A stretch of 64,000 bases of DNA from the NCBI GenBank assembly GCA_001004105.1, contig LCQK01000003.1, forward strand, positions 46,805-110,804. Reading direction: 5' to 3'. Shown here piece after piece: positions 6,965 to 48,932 of the stretch (position 1 is the first letter of the stretch; the number at the start of each line of letters is the position of its first letter). Both the position numbers and the translations under genes were made by a program. The notes below the pieces were generated by a model. It ran no database searches. It was given only the letters and a program-made list of their open reading frames with translations, and was not told the origin of the DNA. This DNA is from Candidatus Jorgensenbacteria bacterium GW2011_GWB1_50_10 (lineage in GTDB: Bacteria; Patescibacteriota; Minisyncoccia; UBA6257; GWB1-50-10).

Positions 6965-8205
6965 TGAAAAGAACCAATGGCTTCACTCTCATTGAACTTT
7001 TAATCGTCATCGCCATTCTTGCCGTCTTCGCAACGGTGACTGTTTTGGTCATCAACCCCGCCGAGCTCATCAGGGCCCGTCGCGACTCCACCCGGCTCTC
7101 CGACCTTAACACCATCAATAAGACCCTGGGCCTTCTCCAAACCGACCAACCTGGCGCCTCTTTCGGCTCTAGCAACAAGGTTTACGTTTCCATCCCCGAC
7201 ACCTCCGCGACCTGCGTGAACCTCGGCCTGCCCGCCCTCCCTTCCGGCTGGACTTACGGCTGTGTCACAACTGCCAACCTCTACAATGTTAACGGCACGG
7301 GCTGGATTCCTGTGAATCTCATGAGCTTTTCCGCCGGTTCGCCCCTCTCCCGCCTGCCCGTTGACCCCATCAACGCCACCTCAACCGGCAACTACTACAC
7401 CTACGTTACCGGGGGGAGTTGGGAGTTCACCGCTTTCCCGGAATCCTCCAAGTACAAAATGGGCGGCGGGAGCGACAAGACATCAGGTGACGGCGGTCCC
7501 TATCCCGAACTTTTTGAAATCGGTTCCAATTTAGCCCTTCACCCGGTGTCCAGAGACACTTCGCTTAAGGGCTATTGGAATTTTGAAGAGGGAAGCGGAG
7601 CGACGACTTATGACTCTTCGGGCGCCGGTAATGTCGGCACCTGGAACGGTTCAGGCAGTCACTGGGCTTCCGGGCGGGTAGGAACGTATGGGGGGCAATT
7701 CAACGGCACGAATGATTATTTGGATGTTGGAAATACAAGCTCCTTAAATATCACGGGCAATATCACTTTTATGGCTTGGGTTTATCTTACTTCTCTGCCC
7801 GGCACTGGCCAATATCGGGTTATCAATCGGGGCGTTGATGGGGGGTTCGGTATGTATGTAGGCGCTGGCGATCATCCTGATGACATAGAATGCGGTATCC
7901 GAACCTCAAATGGAGGCCGAGCGATATCTTCGGACGGTTACGCTTCAAATATTTTAAATATGTGGACACACTTAGCCTGCGTTTATGACGGGTCGGCCCT
8001 TCGTTTGTATGTGAACGGTTCTCAAATTGGTTCGGCGAGCGCCTCCGGAGAAAACAATGTCGGCGGTTATAATACCAGTGTCCGGATCGGATCGGATTGG
8101 CTACCCGGCAAATTTTTTCCGGGCAGAATTGACACGGTCCGCATTTACGACCGGGGTCTTTCAGCCGATGAAGTACGGGCAATCTATGAATCCGCTAACA
8201 ACTGA
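6961..8205 (+). CDS. type IV pilin-like protein with C-terminal LamG/concanavalin-A-like domain
   Basis: Class III signal and pilin helix MMKRTNGFTLIELLIVIAILAV...INPAELIRARRDSTR; pilin core shared with 20441 and 21047 paralogs (GSPLSRLP.DP, FEIGSNLAL); C-terminal LamG pattern DYLDVGN...ITFMAWVY...VRIYDRGLSADEV. Confidence 0.8.
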   Translation: MMKRTNGFTLIELLIVIAILAVFATVTVLVINPAELIRARRDSTRLSDLNTINKTLGLLQTDQPGASFGSSNKVYVSIPDTSATCVNLGLPALPSGWTYGCVTTANLYNVNGTGWIPVNLMSFSAGSPLSRLPVDPINATSTGNYYTYVTGGSWEFTAFPESSKYKMGGGSDKTSGDGGPYPELFEIGSNLALHPVSRDTSLKGYWNFEEGSGATTYDSSGAGNVGTWNGSGSHWASGRVGTYGGQFNGTNDYLDVGNTSSLNITGNITFMAWVYLTSLPGTGQYRVINRGVDGGFGMYVGAGDHPDDIECGIRTSNGGRAISSDGYASNILNMWTHLACVYDGSALRLYVNGSQIGSASASGENNVGGYNTSVRIGSDWLPGKFFPGRIDTVRIYDRGLSADEVRAIYESANN

Positions 8206-10513: not shown

Positions 10514-11411
10514 CATGAGAAGTTTACTGGAGATAATCCGGGAAACGGAAAAAGATAAGGTTGCAATAGGCCATTTCAATATTTCCAACCTGGAGCAGTT
10601 AAAGGCGATATCGCATGTCGCGGCGAAACTCAACGTACCGGTCATTATCGGCACATCGGAGGGCGAACGGGACTATATTGGTGTTCATCACGCCGTTGAT
10701 CTCGTCAAAAGTTACAACAAGGAGCACGCAAAAGGAAATTATCGGCTGTTTTTGAACGCCGACCACACCCATACTTTAGAGAACGCGAGGAAAGCGGCTG
10801 AAGTCGGTTATGACGCGATATTATTTGACGGCGGCAAACTGCCCCTTGAAGAAAATATCAGGGCTACGAAAGAAGTCGTAGAAATGGTGAGAAAAATCAA
10901 CAAAAACATCTTAGTTGAAGGTGAGCTGGGCTATATCGGTTCGTCTTCGGAAGTAAGGAAGGAAATTCCGGAAGGGGCGGCGATTAATCCCGGGGATTTG
11001 ACCAGACCGGAGGAAGCAGCGAGGTTCGTTGAAGAAACCGGCGTGGATATGCTTGCGCCGGCGGTGGGGAACATTCACGGCATGTTCGCGAACGCTCCGG
11101 AGCCGCGGCTTGATATAGAACGCATCCGGGAAATCAAGAAAGCGGTTGAAAACCTGCCTGCCGGCAGGCAGGTCCCGCTTGTTTTGCACGGCGCCTCCGG
11201 CAACACCGATGAAGATTTAAGTGTGGCAATCGATGCTGGAATTTCCATAATCCACATTTCCACCGAGCTTCGCGTTGCTTGGCGCAAGGGTTTGGAAGAA
11301 GCTTTGAAGGAGAATCCTGACGAAGTCGCGCCCTACAAGCTGATGCCCGAGGATTTGGCAGAAATGGAGAAAGTGGTGGAGAGAAAATTACGCCTCTTCA
11401 ATAAACTGTAA
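10503..11411 (+). CDS. fba: class II fructose/tagatose-bisphosphate aldolase
   Basis: DHTHT... and LHGASG motifs; carries in-frame palindrome insert (ENLPAGRQ) at 11153-11172. Confidence 0.9.
   Translation: MKFNMRSLLEIIRETEKDKVAIGHFNISNLEQLKAISHVAAKLNVPVIIGTSEGERDYIGVHHAVDLVKSYNKEHAKGNYRLFLNADHTHTLENARKAAEVGYDAILFDGGKLPLEENIRATKEVVEMVRKINKNILVEGELGYIGSSSEVRKEIPEGAAINPGDLTRPEEAARFVEETGVDMLAPAVGNIHGMFANAPEPRLDIERIREIKKAVENLPAGRQVPLVLHGASGNTDEDLSVAIDAGISIIHISTELRVAWRKGLEEALKENPDEVAPYKLMPEDLAEMEKVVERKLRLFNKL
11153..11172. repeat. 20-bp perfect palindrome CCTGCCTGCCGGCAGGCAGG (copy, in-frame in fba; extends to 22 bp with A/T flanks)
   Basis: Exact repeat; encodes LPAGRQ. Confidence 0.9.
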
Positions 11412-11436
11412 GAAGCAAAAGATTAGAAATACGCTT

Positions 11437-11455
11437 ACTATGACATGTCATAGCG
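11437..11455. repeat. 19-bp site ACTATGACATGTCATAGCG (contains 16-bp palindrome CTATGACATGTCATAG), copy 1
   Basis: Identical 19-mer also at 11876-11894; flanks the YerC-like ORF. Confidence 0.7.
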
Positions 11456-11457
11456 CG

Positions 11458-11856
11458 TCAATAATGGTGCATGTAGACTTTTCCGTATTTAGTGCGGCGG
11501 TAGTATCTATAGGGTTTCTTTTTAGAAGGGTGACTGCTGTTGTATACTTTCTTTTTCCGCCCCGTTTTGCCTCGTTCCCGGTAGCTCCGATAACCACTCC
11601 CTTCCAGCGCTTTTTTGATACTGCTTACGGTCTGCGGCGAGAGATGGAGTTCCTCGACAATCTGCACGAATTTTTTCCCTGAATTCATGCGGTCTGCTAC
11701 CGCGGCGCGCATAACAAGATTATGACGTTCGTTGGAGGTGGTAAATAGTTCCAAGAGTTCTCTGGATTCTGATATCTTCTTCCAGCACGCTCTTTCCCAT
11801 TCCTTACGCGAAGAGTACTGGTTGGTTGGCGGCAACGATAATAAATTCCTGGTCAT
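11458..11856 (-). CDS. TrpR/YerC-YecD-like helix-turn-helix DNA-binding protein with basic C-terminal tail
   Basis: ELLELF...N..E...L..R..VA..M.SGKKFVQIVEELHLSPQTVSSIKKAL matches YerC/TrpR-like pattern; ORF bracketed by identical palindromic sites. Confidence 0.4.
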   Translation of the reverse strand: MTRNLLSLPPTNQYSSRKEWERACWKKISESRELLELFTTSNERHNLVMRAAVADRMNSGKKFVQIVEELHLSPQTVSSIKKALEGSGYRSYRERGKTGRKKKVYNSSHPSKKKPYRYYRRTKYGKVYMHHY

Positions 11857-11875
11857 AAGGTAAGTTTAACATATC

Positions 11876-11894
11876 ACTATGACATGTCATAGCG
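11876..11894. repeat. 19-bp site ACTATGACATGTCATAGCG, copy 2 (about 20 nt upstream of YerC-like start codon)
   Basis: Identical to 11437-11455. Confidence 0.7.
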
Positions 11895-11943
11895 TTTTTA
11901 CTGGGTAGTCAGTTGTTTTGTTGCTCTATTCTCGCATATAAAA

Positions 11944-11972
11944 TTGACAAGCTTGTATAAATAGGGTATACT
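11944..11972 (+). promoter_or_regulatory. sigma70-like promoter TTGACA-17nt-TATACT upstream of DGR target gene
   Basis: Consensus -35 hexamer at 11944-11949, -10 at 11967-11972. Confidence 0.5.
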
Positions 11973-12053
11973 TTAGGGCAGTACAATAATGGTGAGTCTG
12001 CGGGTCTGGTAAATGCCGGACTGGGGGACGAACCACAAAAAGAGAGGTACAAG

Positions 12054-12749
12054 ATGGCGAAAAAGACGGATGAACTGGTGCAGTTTGCGGGCCACTTCCA
12101 GTCGCTCGCGACTGCGGTTTCCCGCAACCTCGAAGAGCGCGGCGTAAACGTTGTTGAGGCAATCGCGGAGGCCGCAAAGCCGCAAGGCGCTCGGGCGGTC
12201 GCGAAGATCGTAGACGCGCTCGCCGAACTCGTTGAAAACGGCAAGCGGGTCGTCGGCGCTCTCAATCTCATCGTGGCCGACATCGCCGTGAAGACCGAAC
12301 TCTTCACAAAAAATTCGTTCTTCGGCGAGGGGAGCCCAGTAAAACTCTACATCTGGGATAACTTCCGGAACTGGGTACTCACGGCTATCCTTGAGAATAT
12401 ACCTGCGTTCCAGGGTATGCTCGTGAAGCACCAACTCACGAAGGGGATGTATGACTCGGAGATTCTCTCCGGACTCGGGCATCCCACGCCGTTCTCACCA
12501 ACCGAGTTCGCGGCTGTCATTCGCGACCTCATCTCCAAGCAATCGAGAGGCGAGGAGGGCCTTCTCCTCACGAACGGCTACGCCAACATCTTCTATGTAC
12601 AGTTGCCTGCCGGCGCAGGCGGGGAAGATGCACGCGTGGTCGCGGTGCGCGTGACCTGGAACGCCGGGGACGACGACTGGCACCTGGACGCCTACGGCTT
12701 GGACGACGACGGGTGGGGTGACGGTGTCTGCGTGTTCTCTCGCAGCTGA
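12054..12749 (+). CDS. DGR variable (target) protein with C-terminal VR
   Basis: C-terminal 113 nt (12631-12743) near-identical to TR; ends CVFSRS; paralog at 48342-48932; contains degenerate palindrome insert LPAGAG at 12603-12622. Confidence 0.85.
   Translation: MAKKTDELVQFAGHFQSLATAVSRNLEERGVNVVEAIAEAAKPQGARAVAKIVDALAELVENGKRVVGALNLIVADIAVKTELFTKNSFFGEGSPVKLYIWDNFRNWVLTAILENIPAFQGMLVKHQLTKGMYDSEILSGLGHPTPFSPTEFAAVIRDLISKQSRGEEGLLLTNGYANIFYVQLPAGAGGEDARVVAVRVTWNAGDDDWHLDAYGLDDDGWGDGVCVFSRS
12603..12622. repeat. decayed palindrome-family copy TTGCCTGCCGGCGCAGGCGG inside DGR target 1 (encodes LPAGAG absent from paralog)
   Basis: Target 1 reads VQLPAGAGGEDARVVAV where paralog reads [11 protein letters not shown]. 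Confidence 0.5.
12631..12743 (+). repeat. DGR variable repeat (VR)
   Basis: 113-bp alignment to TR 12998-13110 with 14 mismatches, every one at a TR adenine. Confidence 0.9.
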
Positions 12750-12781
12750 TCTCGGATTTTCGGTCTCTTGGCAATAGTAGT

Positions 12782-12824
12782 GCGCCCCGTTCGAGTTCTT
12801 CGGAACTTGGACGGGGCGTTTTTG
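12782..12824 (+). terminator. GC-rich hairpin plus T-tract immediately downstream of VR (terminator and/or DGR homing-associated hairpin)
   Basis: GCGCCCCGTTCGAGTTC-ttcg-GAACTTGGACGGGGCG followed by TTTTTG. Confidence 0.5.
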
Positions 12825-12997
12825 TTATAATAAAAATGAAATTTTTTGACATCACTGCGGTCAAGGCTTCAGTGGGAAGATTTCAAAAAACAGAAAGGTC
12901 AGCTGGTGTAGGGCGCTAACGGGTGCGAAAGACCCGGCATTAGATGCAACGCTTAGAGGAATCAAAGCGCAGTGGCAAGGGCGGCGCTTTACACGAT

Positions 12998-13110
12998 AAC
13001 GCGTGGTCGCGGTGAACGTGAACTGGAACGCCGAGAACGACGACTGGAACCTGAACGCCAACGGCTTGGACGACGACAGGTGGAATGACGGTAACTGCGT
13101 GTTCTCTCGC
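12998..13110 (+). repeat. DGR template repeat (TR)
   Basis: AAC-codon-rich 113-bp copy of VR; all VR differences map to A in this copy. Confidence 0.9.
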
Positions 13111-13125
13111 CGCTTACCTTTTATA

Positions 13126-13461
13126 TCAGTTCTTTGGGAGCTGTTTTAGCCAACCGCCCAGCATTTTTCCAACTTCGTCAACTTTTCCAGAAAGCGCGGC
13201 GTATTTTTTCGTGTCCAGAGATTTGATTTGCCAGGCAATTTGGAGGAAAAATTTTAGTGAGTCAAGTTTAAAAGAGGAATTCCTGATTTTTGCAAACCGT
13301 TCGGCTGGCGTGAGAGGGGCGGCTGAGAAAATTTCTTCGATAATATCCAAGAAAAGCAAATCTACTTTTACGCCGAGAGTATAGCGCGAGGTTTTGGGAA
13401 AATGAGGCGCGAATTCTTGCCAAAGCGTGTAGGCCGCGATTAGTTTCTGAATAATTGGCAG
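13126..13461 (-). CDS. avd: Avd-like accessory variability determinant (four-helix-bundle, TIGR02436-like); start codon uncertain
   Basis: ...FPKTSRYTLGVKVDLLFLDIIEEI...LKFFLQIAWQIKSLDT...VDEVGKMLGGWLKQ pattern; frame open back to 13482 with no ATG/GTG/TTG (ORF table start is TTG at 13359). Confidence 0.6.
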   Translation of the reverse strand: MPIIQKLIAAYTLWQEFAPHFPKTSRYTLGVKVDLLFLDIIEEIFSAAPLTPAERFAKIRNSSFKLDSLKFFLQIAWQIKSLDTKKYAALSGKVDEVGKMLGGWLKQLPKN

Positions 13462-13498
13462 TTCATTCCGTCGGGGGGGGGTTAGAGGACGGGAATTT

Positions 13499-14482
13499 AT
13501 GAAAATTCAATTGAGCCATAAATTCGAAGATATTATTTCACTGGAAAATCTTTTGGAAGCATGGCGAGAATTTTTGCGCGGCAAGAGAAATAAAAGAGAC
13601 GTTCAGGAATTCTCATCGCGTTTAATGGATAACATTCTATTACTTCACAGCGAACTTCGCAATAAAACCTACAAGCACGGGAAGTACGAAGCCTTTAACA
13701 TCTCCGACCCCAAACCGAGAAACATCCACAAAGCCGCCGTCCGCGACCGCCTACTTCATTACGCTATTTACAGGGTTTTATATCCGTTTTTTGATAAGGT
13801 ATTCATCGCCGATTCTTTTTCCTGCCGTTTGGGAAAAGGGACGCACAGAGCCATCAACCGCTTTAGAACTTTTGCTTATAAAGTGAGTAAAAATAATACC
13901 AAAACCTGCTGGGTTTTAAAGTTGGATATTAGGAAATTCTTCGCGAGTATTGACCATGAAATTTTGATAAAAATTCTTGAGGAATACATACCCGACCAAG
14001 ACATTATCTGGTTGCTGAAGAAAGTGATAGAAAGTTTTTATTCGACCGAACCCGGCAAGGGCCTGCCTTTAGGCAATTTAACCTCCCAGCTTTTAGTAAA
14101 TGTTTACATGAACAAGTTTGACCAATTTGTGAAACACAAGTTCAAGGCCAAGTATTACGTGAGATACGCCGATGATTTTGTGATTGTGTCGAAAAACGGA
14201 ATATGGCTTGAAAGTTTAATTCCGAGAATCAGCGAATTTCTAAACAGAGAATTGAAGTTAAAACTTCACGACGATAAGATATTCATTAAAACTTTAGCTT
14301 CGGGAGTAGATTTCCTTGGCTGGGTTCACTTTCCGGATTACCGAGTTCTGCGAACCACGACCAAAAGAAGAATGTTTAAAAGAATCAAAGAACATCCCGC
14401 GCCGGAAACAATAAATTCTTATTTGGGATTATTAAGGCACGGGAACGCTTATAAATTAAAAAGAAAAATTATTGCTGAATAA
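13499..14482 (+). CDS. DGR reverse transcriptase
   Basis: RT motifs incl. YADDFV; motif 4 LGNLTSQ (I/LGxxxSQ hallmark of DGR RTs); 327 aa without maturase/endonuclease domains. Confidence 0.9.
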
Positions 14483-14498
14483 TTTTTTTTGTGTTTTA

Positions 14499-15242
14499 AT
14501 GGCGTTTATGGAAGCTAGTATTAGCAAGATAATTTTAGAGATTCGGGCGGGCACGGGCGGGGACGAGGCCTCGCTTTTTGCCGGCGATTTGGCGCGGATG
14601 TATCAGAGGTTTGCCGCCCGGCGGGGCTGGAAATTCTCGACGCTCGATGCGAGCGAGTCCGGCGCGCGCGGCTATAAGACGTTCATCGCGGAGATCGGCG
14701 GCCCGGGCGTCTACGAGGCATTGAAGAACGAATCCGGCGTGCACCGGGTGCAGAGAGTGCCGGATACCGAACGGGGCGGCCGGGTGCATACCTCAACCGT
14801 ATCGGTCGCGGTTTTACCCGTAGTGGAAACCAAGGATTTTCAAATTAAAGAAAGCGATTTGGAAGTGACTTTCTCCCGCGCCGGCGGTCCCGGCGGCCAG
14901 AACGTGAACAAAGTGGAAACTGCGGTTCGAATCACCCATAAACCCACCGGCGTTGTCGTAGGTTCCAGGGAAGAACGGAGCCAGCACGCCAATCGCGAGA
15001 AAGCGATGGAGGTCTTGCGGGCCAAGCTTTACGAGGCGCAGAAAGAACAGCAAGTGGGGTCGGTTGCGGAGTTGCGGAGAGGGCAGATCGGCTCGGCCGG
15101 ACGGGCGGAGAAGGTAAGGACATATAATTTTCCGCAGGATAGAATTACAGATCACAGAGTAAGTAAAAAATGGAGTAATATTGAAAAGATATTAGAAGGT
15201 AATCTTGACCCAATCATACAGGCATTTTTGAAAGTCAATTAA
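14499..15242 (+). CDS. prfA: class I peptide chain release factor, RF1-like, lacking N-terminal domain 1
   Basis: [12 protein letters not shown]..., RVQRVPDTE (PxT-type), GGQ motif [28 protein letters not shown]; begins where RF1 domain 2 begins; stop TAA just upstream of the ORF; 3' end is AT-rich and duplicated downstream. Confidence 0.8.
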
Positions 15243-15248
15243 AAAATC

Positions 15249-15268
15249 CCTGCCTGCCGGCAGGCAGG
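15249..15268. repeat. 20-bp perfect palindrome CCTGCCTGCCGGCAGGCAGG (copy, intergenic, 6 nt after prfA stop)
   Basis: Exact 20-mer also at 11153, 17913, 51722, 63521. Confidence 0.9.
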
Positions 15269-15269
15269 C

Positions 15270-15372
15270 GCACCTATAATTTTCCGCAGGACAGGATAAC
15301 CGACCACCGTCAGGGCAAAAAGGTTTCAAATATTCTGAAAGTTCTCGACGGCGATTTGGACAAACTAACCGG
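15270..15372 (+). pseudogene. displaced original 3' end of release factor gene ([35 protein letters not shown])
   Basis: In-frame-translatable GC-rich duplicate of the RF C-terminal coding segment located after the palindrome; homologous to 15127-15242. Confidence 0.6.
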
Positions 15373-16870
15373 CCGTTAAAATTTCTATATCCTTTTGGAA
15401 TTGCTGGGCTTTCACGACCACCGGTTCGCCGTAAGCCCAGCGGTAGTAATACCACCGGCCACCGGCGTAGTATCTTGCCGCGGCGCAGCGTTCGGCAAGG
15501 ACTTGGGCATCGGCGATGTTTCTGTTTTCGCTCACGTAATTCCGGCAAGCGCTGGAATTCAGGGCGTCTTTGAGATACAAGGAAGTCGCAACGAAAGCGT
15601 CGGCGTTTGACCAGGGATTGGAAGGAGTTTGGCCGGTGATTTTCCCAATATAATCCTTGCTTTGGTTATACTCCCAGGAACTGCCGTTTTTCTCCCAACC
15701 GCCGTAGATGGCCCAGGTTGAGGGAATGAATTGGGCCGGGCCCATGGCGCCGCCGTAGGCGCCGTCTCTGTTGGCACAGGAAACCTTCGCCACGGTTGAA
15801 TTCGGGTCAATGCCGAGCTTGGAAAGAATGGCGAGGAAAATCGGAACGTCGCGGGTGGGGTGCATGGCGCCCTGGTAGCTGCAGCGGCCGACGTTTTTCC
15901 CCAGAAGAGATTCTTGCTGAAGAATGGCGAGAAGAAAAGCGGCCCGGACCCCGGTTGCGCCTTCGGCAAGGCGGGCGTATTTATAGGCCTCTTCAAAAGT
16001 GAGTTCGCCGCCTCCCAAAAGACGGAAAATTCTGCTTCTTATTTGAGCGGCAGTGGCTTGGGTTTCTTTCAGGATTTTTTGGTATTCGGATTCTTTGCCT
16101 TTGGTTACGGTCAGAAGCTGATTTTTTTCCGCTTGGGTCGTCGCGACGCTCTTTTTTTGCGATTCCTGATAATTCTTGAGATTTTCCACGTCGGATTTTT
16201 CCGCGGCGAGCTCCTGTTTTTGCTCAAGCAATTCCACCCGAAGGGCGACAACTTCGTTTAAGGCCGTCCGGATGTTGGACTGAACCAGGGTTATGTTGTT
16301 GACGTCACCGAAGAAATCCGAAAGATTGGCATTGGCCAGCAACACCTCGATCAAGCTTTGGGCGTCGGCTTCATAGAGGTCGCGGACGCCTCTCGCAAGG
16401 GCCGTTTTATGGCCGTCAATTCTGTTTTCGGTAACGTTTATGTTCTTTTGAGTGCTCGTTATTTCGTCGTCCAATTTCTGGAGATTCAGGTTGACCGCTT
16501 TAATTTGGAGGTTCAACTGGCTGATTTTGGCGTTCAGGGATTTTATTTCGTTAGTGAGGGTTTTGCCCTGTTTTTGATATTCGGCAACCGTACTTTGATG
16601 TTCAAGGATTTGGCGCTCCAATTCGGCAAGTTCGTTTTCAAGTTTCTCCCGTTCTTCCTGGCTGGTCGCGCCGTTTTCCGTGCCCGTCATCTCGGCTGCC
16701 TGGGTCGGAGTGTTCAGTTTGGTTCCGAGAAGAAGCCCCGAAAAAGCGAGGAGAACCAAAACTCCTCCTACGAATTTGATTGATTTGGTAAGAGGGATCC
16801 GGATAGCGGTCGAATAGGAGAGATTGAGACGTCTTTTACGGCTGGCCTTAATATCGTAGATTTTGCGCAT
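15365..16870 (-). CDS. membrane-anchored coiled-coil protein with C-terminal lytic transglycosylase (MltB/SLT_2-like) domain
   Basis: N-terminal TM, long heptad-like Q/E/K/L region, C-terminal [13 protein letters not shown] motif. Confidence 0.75.
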
Positions 16871-16979
16871 CTACTTAATATAATAACACTGATATATATT
16901 CTGTTTCATCCCGTTAGAGATTGCGCTCGCGCGCAAGCTCGCCCGAAAGGCCTTTGGGGCGGGCTATCTCTAAAAAGGA

Positions 16980-17669
16980 TTATTTTTTCTTCTCTTCTTC
17001 CTTGGGCGGTGTTTCTTTTTTCTCCGGCTCCGCTGCCTGCCTGCCGGTAGGCATGGCTTTCGCTTCGGTTTCGGCCGGAGCGGCCGGTGTTTCGGCTATC
17101 GGAGGCGGCGCAACAACTTCCTCCTTCACTTTTTCGGTTACGGTCGCAATCACGGTTTCCTCCGGCGCGAGAATTTTTACTTCGGAAGGCGCGCGCAGGT
17201 CGCTAACGTGGATGCTGTCGCCCATTTTCTCCAGCTTGCCCAAATCAACCTGAAAGGAGTGGGGGATTTTGTCGGGTAGGGATTTGACTTCAATTTCGTG
17301 CAGCACCCGGACGATCACCAAACCGGCTTTTTCCGCCGGAGCGGTGCCTGTGAATTCCACCGGCACTTTTGTTTCAATCGCCTCATCCATTTTAATTTGA
17401 TGGAAATTCACCGAAAGCGTTTTTCTGGTCAGGGGATGTTCCTGAACCTCGGAAATTAAGATTGGAATTTTTCCGCCCTTCTCGTTTATCAAATAAACGA
17501 CGGTGTGGCTGCCGGCTTTGCGGTAGACTTTAACGAAATCGTTTTCCGAAACGGCAAGGTGCTGGTTTAGAACGCCGCTCCCGAAAAGTTCGGCCGGAAC
17601 CAAACCCGCCCTCCGGAGGGATTTCACTTTTTTCCCCAAAATTTCCCTTGTTTTGACTGCGAGTTCCAT
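16980..17669 (-). CDS. rplY: 50S ribosomal protein L25 (Ctc form) with charged C-terminal tail
   Basis: MELAVKTREILGKKVKSLRRAGLVPAELFG... ; tail contains degenerate palindrome-encoded MPTGRQ. Confidence 0.85.
   Translation of the reverse strand: MELAVKTREILGKKVKSLRRAGLVPAELFGSGVLNQHLAVSENDFVKVYRKAGSHTVVYLINEKGGKIPILISEVQEHPLTRKTLSVNFHQIKMDEAIETKVPVEFTGTAPAEKAGLVIVRVLHEIEVKSLPDKIPHSFQVDLGKLEKMGDSIHVSDLRAPSEVKILAPEETVIATVTEKVKEEVVAPPPIAETPAAPAETEAKAMPTGRQAAEPEKKETPPKEEEKKK
17036..17055. repeat. degenerate copy of 20-bp palindrome (CCTGCCTGCCGGTAGGCATG, 2 mismatches), in-frame in rplY tail
   Basis: Seen in sequence; encodes MPTGRQ on - strand. Confidence 0.6.
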
Positions 17670-17675
17670 TTCTTT

Positions 17676-17900
17676 TTATTTTTTTGTTTTCTTCGTCCCA
17701 GCCTTAGCGCGTCTCGCCCGGAAGCGTTCCACCCGACCGGTTGTGTCAATCAACGTCTTCGCACCGGTGTAGAACGGGTGGCACTTGGAACAAATTTCCA
17801 CCTCGATTTTTTCCATGGTGGCGCCGACCGTAAATTTGTTGCCGCAGGCGCAAGTAACGTGGGCTTTGGGGTAGTATTGCGGGTGGATATCTTTTTTCAT
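17676..17900 (-). CDS. rpmE: 50S ribosomal protein L31
   Basis: [46 protein letters not shown]; start taken at internal ATG (ORF table extends artificially upstream through the palindrome). Confidence 0.9.
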
Positions 17901-48341: not shown

Positions 48342-48932
48342 ATGATGAAGGGAACGAACGGACTCGAGTGGCTTGCGGACCGCTGGCAGTCGGTTGCGAC
48401 TGCAGTTCCCCGCCGCTTTGAGAATCGTGGAGTTAGCGGCGGGGAGGTAATTGCCGCCGTAACCAAGCCCCAGACCAGGAGTATTGTGGTCCAGACCGAG
48501 CCCTTTGCTAAGGACTCGTTCTTTGGGGAGAGCGGTCCCGCGGAGCTCTGCATTTGGGACAACTTCCGAACCCAGGTGCTATCAGCAGTTTCCGAGACCG
48601 TGCCCGCGTTTCGAGGCACGCTCACGAGAACTGAGCTTGAGGAGCACATGGGGGACTCCGAGATTTTCGCCAACGGGACATCCCGGCCGCTCCTCTCGCC
48701 GGACGATTTTGTTGCGGTCGTCCGTGACCTCATCTCCCGCCAGCCGAGAGGTGAGAGGGGAATCCTTCTCACAAACGGGGATGCCAACATCTTCCATGTG
48801 CAGCCGGAGGATGGACCTGTGGTTGCGGTGCGTGGGCGCTGGCGCGTTGGTCTCGGCGGTTGGAGCCTGCGCGCGTATGGCCGGGACGACGTCAGATGGC
48901 TCAAAGGCCACTGCGTGTTCTCCCGCGGCTGA
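48342..48932 (+). CDS. DGR variable-protein paralog (second, diverged target) inserted between uvrB and uvrA
   Basis: Homologous along its length to 12054-12749 (e.g. [36 protein letters not shown]...); ends CVFSRG; start taken at ATG 48342 after AAGGAGAGG. Confidence 0.75.
48819..48926 (+). repeat. diverged VR-like repeat (about 68% identity to TR 13003-13110)
   Basis: 19 of 36 mismatches vs TR at TR adenines; TR AAC codons correspond to CGC/CGT/CTC/AGC/TAT/CAC; 3' GC-clamp CTGCGTGTTCTC conserved. Confidence 0.6.

Follow-up and report, generated by a model that had tools for sequence, protein, structure and literature searches.

Based on profile searches, structural comparison and direct reading of the sequence we confirmed that positions 14499 to 15242 of the window, the whole 64-kb stretch of DNA analysed here, encode a class I release factor of the RF1 type without domain 1 (Table 1). 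This short RF1 is very probably a housekeeping prfA ortholog, a factor of about 245 aa built from domains 2 to 4, whose domain 1 was lost during evolution in a Paceibacteria-type branch. The original prediction for this gene was correct in all its factual statements.

As predicted, the open reading frame begins at domain 2 of RF1; the profile and PDB matches start there and leave domain 1 uncovered. The Pfam PCRF profile was matched only over positions 100–194 of 194 (E 2.9e-43), that is in its C-terminal half with domains 2 and 4, and the RF-1 domain (domain 3, with the GGQ motif) was matched in full length (profile positions 3–116, E 1.2e-38). The NCBIfam prfA models gave 349–361 bits, with the match starting at profile position 105/113. 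The PDB sequence matches started at residue 85 of the 342-aa RF1 of T. maritima and at residue 112 of the 360-aa RF1 of E. coli, and the alignment of the short RF1 with the solved RF1 structures ran from end to end. An AlphaFold2 model (mean pLDDT 75) had the RF1 fold and was best superposed by Foldseek on ribosome-bound RF1 (TM 0.79, ~238 columns), with 46–49% identity to the ribosome-bound E. coli and T. thermophilus proteins in the structural alignment; identity to E. coli RF1 in the tblastn alignment was about 49%. The identical sequence is found in a database entry titled 'Peptide chain release factor 1 [Candidatus Jorgensenbacteria bacterium GW2011_GWA1_48_13]'. The N-terminal domain 1, a three-helix bundle of ~105–110 aa, was missing, and a domain-1 HMM that we built from 66 N-termini found no match in the protein. 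The mechanical ORF for the gene opens at TTG 14472 and the start of the protein lies about 10 residues ahead of the RAGTGGDEA motif. The protein had been described as about 110 residues short, with a TAA just upstream that leaves no room for domain 1, and this TAA was found in frame as described.

Table 1. Positions in the window of the short RF1 gene, its motifs, the neighbouring DGR and the flanking features.
Feature	Position	Strand	Basis or remark
Trp-repressor-like HTH gene	11458..11856	-	conserved left neighbour of the RF gene in Jorgensenbacteria
DGR cassette in the HTH-prfA spacer (approximate limits)	11960..14470	+	absent from syntenic L001 and L002
DGR target gene, 231 aa, no Pfam hit	12054-12749	+	C-terminal VR
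VR	12632-12743		
TR	12999-13110		~250 nt downstream of the target gene
bAvd gene	13126-13359	-	overlapping the region just after TR
RT (RVT_1 reverse transcriptase)	13499-14482	+	
In-frame TAA closing the RF reading frame	14457..14459	+	14 codons upstream of the start; direct sequence reading
Native RF upstream sequence, 28 nt	14471..14498	+	common to DGR-free L001; right edge of the DGR insertion
Short RF1 (prfA ortholog), 247 aa, domains 2-4 only	14499..15242	+	Pfam, NCBIfam and PDB matches, AF2 model
Alternative start ATG of short RF1 (244 aa)	14508	+	second in-frame ATG
PxT codon-recognition tripeptide P88-D89-T90 (PDT)	14760..14768	+	direct sequence reading
GGQ peptidyl-tRNA hydrolysis motif, residues 132-134	14892..14900	+	direct sequence reading
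20-nt perfect palindrome CCTGCCTGCCGGCAGGCAGG just after the RF stop	15249..15268	.	terminator-like for the convergent minus-strand operon
Relic second copy of the RF 3' end, last ~36 codons, out of frame	15269..15379	+	
Conserved right-hand neighbours of the RF gene	15365..17900	-	
Coiled-coil/SLT-like gene	15365-16870	-	
L25	16980-17669	-	
L31	17676-17900	-	

The elements that read the codon and hydrolyse peptidyl-tRNA were all present and invariant across the clade in an alignment of the best 120 database homologs, which are 71–83% identical to the window protein. The recognition loop is of the PxT type and not the SPF of RF2, and the prfA models scored 349–361 bits against 236 for prfB. 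PxT was found in 120/120 of these homologs, with P and T invariant and x being E, V, T, A, D, S, N or I, and the GGQ motif was found in as many. P88, T90, E91, H97, T98, G20, G21 and E23 were likewise invariant. The retention of a PxT-type loop and of GGQ, as originally claimed, was evident from direct reading. With canonical RF1 (prfA; TIGR00019 / NF001859) the short RF1 shares domains 2, 3 and 4, the PxT loop, the GG-E helix tip, the H-T recognition residues, the GGQ motif, the switch-loop region and the rpmE-prfA neighbourhood; the difference is the absence of the entire domain 1 (~105–110 residues). The scores stayed below the NCBIfam equivalog cut-offs (361 against 400 bits for NF001859 and 349 against 423 for TIGR00019), a shortfall that the missing domain would explain and that is expected for a truncation. 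As a point of annotation, the short forms are named only 'PCRF domain-containing protein' because they fall below these cut-offs.

The models of the other release factor classes all remained under their own cut-offs. For RF2, the SPF motif was absent and the prfB score lay below its cut-off of 370 as well as below the prfA scores. The ArfB model reached 57 bits (cut-off 100) and matched residues 111–146 only. ArfB, ICT1 and C12orf65 share the GGQ domain with the short RF1; they are proteins of ~140 aa without codon-recognition domains, ArfB consisting of the GGQ domain and a basic C-terminal tail, whereas the short RF1 has 247 aa with full domains 2 and 4. PrfH (RFH; TIGR03072), like the short RF1, is a natural class I release factor homolog without domain 1; its recognition motif is a different one, and an rtcB-like gene invariably lies upstream as its partner (PMC1586002). 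In contrast, the short RF1 keeps PxT, scored 83 bits with the PrfH model (cut-off 166.65) and has no co-oriented rtcB-like partner upstream; the upstream gene is the DGR RT or the HTH gene, the downstream gene is SLT-like, and no RtcB was found among the called genes of L001–L006, which belong to a sample of species-representative genomes (L-numbered loci). The opinion that the architecture is neither that of ArfB nor that of PrfH therefore holds, as both models are under cut-off, PxT is intact and domains 2–4 are present.

The gene also occupies the orthologous position in the rpmE/prfA neighbourhood. In the Jorgensenbacteria relative L001 (GCA_030648515.1) the order is, as in the window apart from the DGR, PfkB, aldolase, Trp-repressor-like HTH (minus strand), RF, SLT-like, L25 and L31 (the last three on the minus strand), and the set of aldolase, L25, SLT-like, L31 and RF1 also surrounds an RF1 with a domain 1 of ~80 aa in L039, L086 and L087. 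Many unrelated phyla have L31 immediately upstream of prfA, an arrangement also seen in the short-form loci L009, L010 and L012; in L010 and L012 the spacer from L31 to the conserved core of the RF is only ~110–130 nt. The conserved aldolase/L25/L31/prfA neighbourhood thus indicates a prfA ortholog and not a PrfH- or ArfB-like paralog. As a separate observation, the L25/SLT-like/L31 block is inverted with respect to prfA in Jorgensenbacteria-type loci (10515–17900 of the window, L001, L002 and L008), and in other Paceibacteria (L039, L086, L087) aldolase, L25, SLT, L31 and RF1 are all on one strand.

An accessory paralog, acting for example in ribosome rescue like PrfH while a canonical full-length RF1 is encoded elsewhere, would be in line with the known natural domain-1-less relatives, PrfH and ArfB, being rescue factors, and with the view of the genome being a 64-kb window. 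We consider it unlikely, because the protein is 54–58% identical to the RF1 of unrelated phyla, a level typical of orthologs, because no variation is seen in PxT, the GG-E helix tip, H97/T98 or GGQ, and because the rpmE/prfA neighbourhood is in relatives the home of the only RF1. The PrfH and ArfB models, far under their cut-offs, and the lack of an rtcB-like partner among the called neighbours argue in the same direction.

The housekeeping reading agrees with the distribution of the short form. The best 120 homologs came from Jorgensenbacteria, Brennerbacteria, Paceibacterota or other Paceibacteria-type genomes and entries of the 'Patescibacteria group', and all were 240–291 aa long, with no match to the domain-1 HMM (0/120). 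In 114 of them 7–20 residues precede the E(I/V)RAG motif. The homologs in the alignment begin 4–8 residues before the conserved N-terminal block, except for a few longer calls, whose extensions are unrelated and not domain 1. On the DNA, an upstream in-frame stop leaves no room for domain 1 in L001, L002 and L008–L013 (55–80% identical), with the exception of L010, where the frame is open for 74 codons upstream and the end of L31 is found ~110 nt before the RF match instead.

Longer forms were found around this group. Proteins of 315–329 aa with a domain 1 of ~80 aa, detected by the domain-1 HMM at E values of 5e-11 to 4e-13, occur in the Paceibacteria-type loci L018 (Kaiserbacteria), L036, L039, L086 and L087, and an N-terminus of ~110 residues was found in the sampled loci of Gracilibacteria, Peregrinibacteria, Andersenbacteria and all other phyla. 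A representative library at 50% identity contained few short clusters (P0122, 232 aa; P0124, 242 aa), and its other proteins had the usual 350–365 aa and matched from residue 105–118. In a rough NJ tree of the shared core the short forms and those with a ~80-aa domain 1 formed one clade, apart from the other Patescibacteria. The domain-1-keeping forms were nested among the short forms, which means either more than one loss or that the rough tree is wrong. Judged from these sequences, the truncation is a lineage feature of this Paceibacteria-type branch of the Patescibacteria, and the alignment with the RF1 of relatives, put forward at the outset as a check, came out for a lineage-wide truncation, since the best 120 homologs and the DGR-free L001 are all short.

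Some single cases were treated separately. An apparently short RF1 in L026, an alphaproteobacterial MAG, was set aside because it is nested inside the Alphaproteobacteria and was taken as a local frameshift or an assembly problem. P0121 and P0123 (477 and 481 aa), considered as fused release factors, are full-length RF1 with internal duplications and were taken as assembly artefacts. Two short-form RF1 proteins differ in the same region of domain 2, in which P0127 (332 aa) has a low-complexity insertion of ~85 aa and P0122 a deletion, suggesting that this surface of domain 2 is plastic in the clade. A chimeric origin of the window gene, considered for its mosaic of AT-rich ends and a GC-rich core, was dropped, as L001 and L002 share the profile. 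Similarly, a consensus scan gave no support to a leaderless start at ATG 14508 from a conserved promoter of the extended -10 type, because the hexamers had no A at position 2.

Additionally, we searched for a domain 1 encoded separately from the gene. The HMM found no orphan domain 1 in the six-frame translation of the 64-kb window or within ~8–10 kb on either side of eight short-form genes, and tblastn with E. coli RF1 found no displaced fragment in the window. As a control, the same HMM detected domain 1 in nine other Patescibacteria loci (5e-11 to 2e-30). With the controls working, the null result indicates that a displaced or split-off domain 1 is not nearby, and the orphan domain-1 fragment, for which a search of the genome had been suggested, was not found upstream of the DGR or elsewhere in the window by either method. 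In canonical release factors domain 1 is a mobile module with a loose attachment (PMC1586002), so that function in trans is conceivable for a domain 1 made elsewhere as a separate polypeptide that associates with the short factor. Such a split gene has, in our judgement, an even smaller chance of being correct than a paralog, as the HMM that drew a blank in the window and around the eight short-form genes readily finds the divergent domain 1 of other Patescibacteria. A very divergent orphan could escape the HMM, given the poor conservation of domain 1.

The element adjoining the RF gene is a true DGR. Over 112 nt, VR and TR show 13 differences, each of them at a TR adenine; the match to bAvd is limited to profile positions 38–106. 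The layout is unusual, with the target gene and its VR followed by TR, the bAvd gene on the opposite strand and then RT. Positions 48493–48932 of the window show 64.6% DNA identity to the body of the target gene and represent a paralog; there was no second match to TR within the window, and hence this stretch is apparently not a second VR. The statement that the RF gene starts right after the DGR RT was accurate, the RT ORF ending at 14482.

In blastn, positions 14471–15191 of the window aligned to positions 7964–8684 of L001, and to the left of the DGR the homology to L001 spans the HTH gene and its upstream palindrome. L001 has no DGR, and its RF is 242 aa as called and 245 aa from the first ATG, which is immediately preceded by a TAA. 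The RF of L002, another relative, also has 242 aa; the upstream genes differ there and the DGR is absent. As homology to L001 resumes at 14471, the DGR is an insertion of ~2.5 kb into a spacer of ~150 nt that left the RF gene and its leader intact. The comparison shows it to be a later insertion and not the cause of the truncation, and its adjacency to the RF gene has no functional meaning. Of the two explanations offered originally, the domain-1-less lineage factor was retained, and a DGR that split the gene and displaced its 5' part was abandoned in view of the short gene of L001 and the 120/120 short homologs.

That a DGR insertion into the 5' part of a full-length prfA produced a lesion specific to this genome is extremely improbable. 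It is true that only 16 nt separate the end of the RT ORF from the start of the RF and that the stop closing the RF frame, a TAA, falls within the RT gene; however, the equally short gene of the DGR-free L001 has a TAA adjoining its ATG, L002 and the best 120 homologs are short too, no domain-1 coding fragment lies across the DGR or anywhere in the 64-kb window, and the native 28-nt upstream sequence is still joined to the RF gene. An artefact, with the true start further upstream or a contig chimeric at the RT/RF junction, has a negligible chance even though a few homologs are called with longer N-termini (up to 291 aa), as these carry unrelated, non-domain-1 extensions, the frame of the window gene is closed 14 codons upstream, upstream stops also close it in short-form loci (L010 having its 74 open codons), and the sequence is 100% identical in independent NCBI, JGI and ENA assemblies.

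A housekeeping RF1 without domain 1 has its nearest precedents in E. coli RF1/RF2 shortened in the laboratory and in Thermotoga-type RF1, whose domain 1 is naturally short. According to the passages of PMC1586002 that summarise Mora et al. 2003, domain 1 is dispensable for recognising the codon and releasing the peptide and is needed for the action on RF3, and N-terminally truncated RF1 is functional in vivo. The engineered E. coli RF1/RF2 covered in these passages consist of domains 2–4 only, as does the short RF1, and kept codon-specific release and function in vivo, while their action on RF3 was lost. These are laboratory deletions, whereas the short RF1 occurs in nature, is conserved and seems to be the sole RF1 at this locus throughout the clade. 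The nearest evolutionary neighbour is the RF1 with a short domain 1 (342 aa in T. maritima, 315–329 aa in Paceibacteria); the ~80-aa forms in L018, L036, L039, L086 and L087 group with the short forms, with which they also have synteny in common. This type keeps a recognisable domain 1, whereas the window protein has none. Our full-text searches brought up no account of a housekeeping RF1 without domain 1 in Patescibacteria/CPR, which is an absence of evidence only, and the parts consulted of a review on release factor evolution (PMC6514570) make no mention of the form.

We infer that the short RF1 is active, specific for UAA/UAG and independent of RF3. It would bind to the A site, read UAA or UAG with the PxT loop and the tip of helix alpha-5, and place GGQ in the peptidyl-transferase centre as canonical RF1 does. 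Afterwards it would dissociate from the ribosome with no help from RF3, as communication with RF3 and the L11 stalk runs through domain 1. Among the domains of release factors this one shows the lowest conservation. The natural reading is that the small-genome bacteria with a short RF1 have dispensed with RF3-assisted recycling and with the domain serving it; prfC is non-essential and missing from small genomes (PMC1586002).

With E. coli RF2 as the query, tblastn found no SPF-type RF2 in the window, nor among 87 RF1 loci and 120 palindrome loci. UGA ends 17 of the 51 long ORFs in the window, including genes of 1216 aa and 669 aa that we took as rpoC and EF-G by size and gene order, and in several cases the next gene follows at once after the UGA. 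Since UGA is a common stop, RF2 activity must exist, and a separate RF2 is expected elsewhere in the genome. It is possible, though short of probable, that the whole short-RF1 clade practises a minimal termination without the axis of domain 1, RF3 and L11 stalk, in which RF2 would be truncated alike, prfC would be absent and the recycling of class I factors would be spontaneous. A similarly truncated RF2 would then have lost the usual N-terminal site of frameshift autoregulation. If true, the clade would offer a natural test of the purpose of domain 1 and RF3.

So far, domain 1 has been regarded as non-essential from engineered deletions and from the accessory factor PrfH. Here, it appears to have been deleted from the housekeeping RF1 of a large and widespread bacterial clade, with close relatives retaining a shorter version, and the natural series of ~110 aa, ~80 aa and none can be used to study the contributions of domain 1, RF3 and the L11 stalk to termination. 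The short RF1 is in keeping with a translation apparatus that is generally trimmed down in Patescibacteria. We regard it as a natural experiment rather than a new mechanism, as biochemistry had already shown that such a factor can work.

Further observations were made at the 3' end of the RF gene. The relic copy of this end is parted from the live stop by the palindrome only and overlaps the end of the convergent gene by ~15 nt. Its first 40 nt differ from the live copy mostly synonymously, and conserved residues are lost further on; no such copy is present in L001 or L002. The relic may mark a past replacement of the RF gene, or of its end, by a diverged allele. The 18-nt core of CCTGCCTGCCGGCAGGCAGG occurs seven times in the window (11154, 15250, 17037, 17914, 51723, 51946 and 63522), with none expected by chance. 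In several cases the copy is part of the reading frame of a conserved gene, where it is translated as LPAGRQ, and the copy in the aldolase is a clean 7-aa insertion as compared to the orthologs of L001 and L002. The palindrome was also present in at least 120 metagenome contigs (median GC 43%) with flanks that are not conserved, and 47/127 of the sites were inside stop-free stretches of at least 150 aa; these contigs are of other organisms and none matches the window. CCTGCCTGCCGGCAGGCAGG looks like a tiny, ORF-neutral palindromic insertion sequence. Another palindrome, ACTATGACATGTCATAGCG, flanks the Trp-repressor-like HTH gene with identical copies at 11437–11455 and 11876–11894. In L001, GGTATGACATGTCATACC lies in a 19-bp hairpin upstream of the HTH ortholog and overlaps a strong promoter-like site, and the ACTATGACATGTCATAGCG/GGTATGACATGTCATACC palindrome is probably the operator of the HTH protein.
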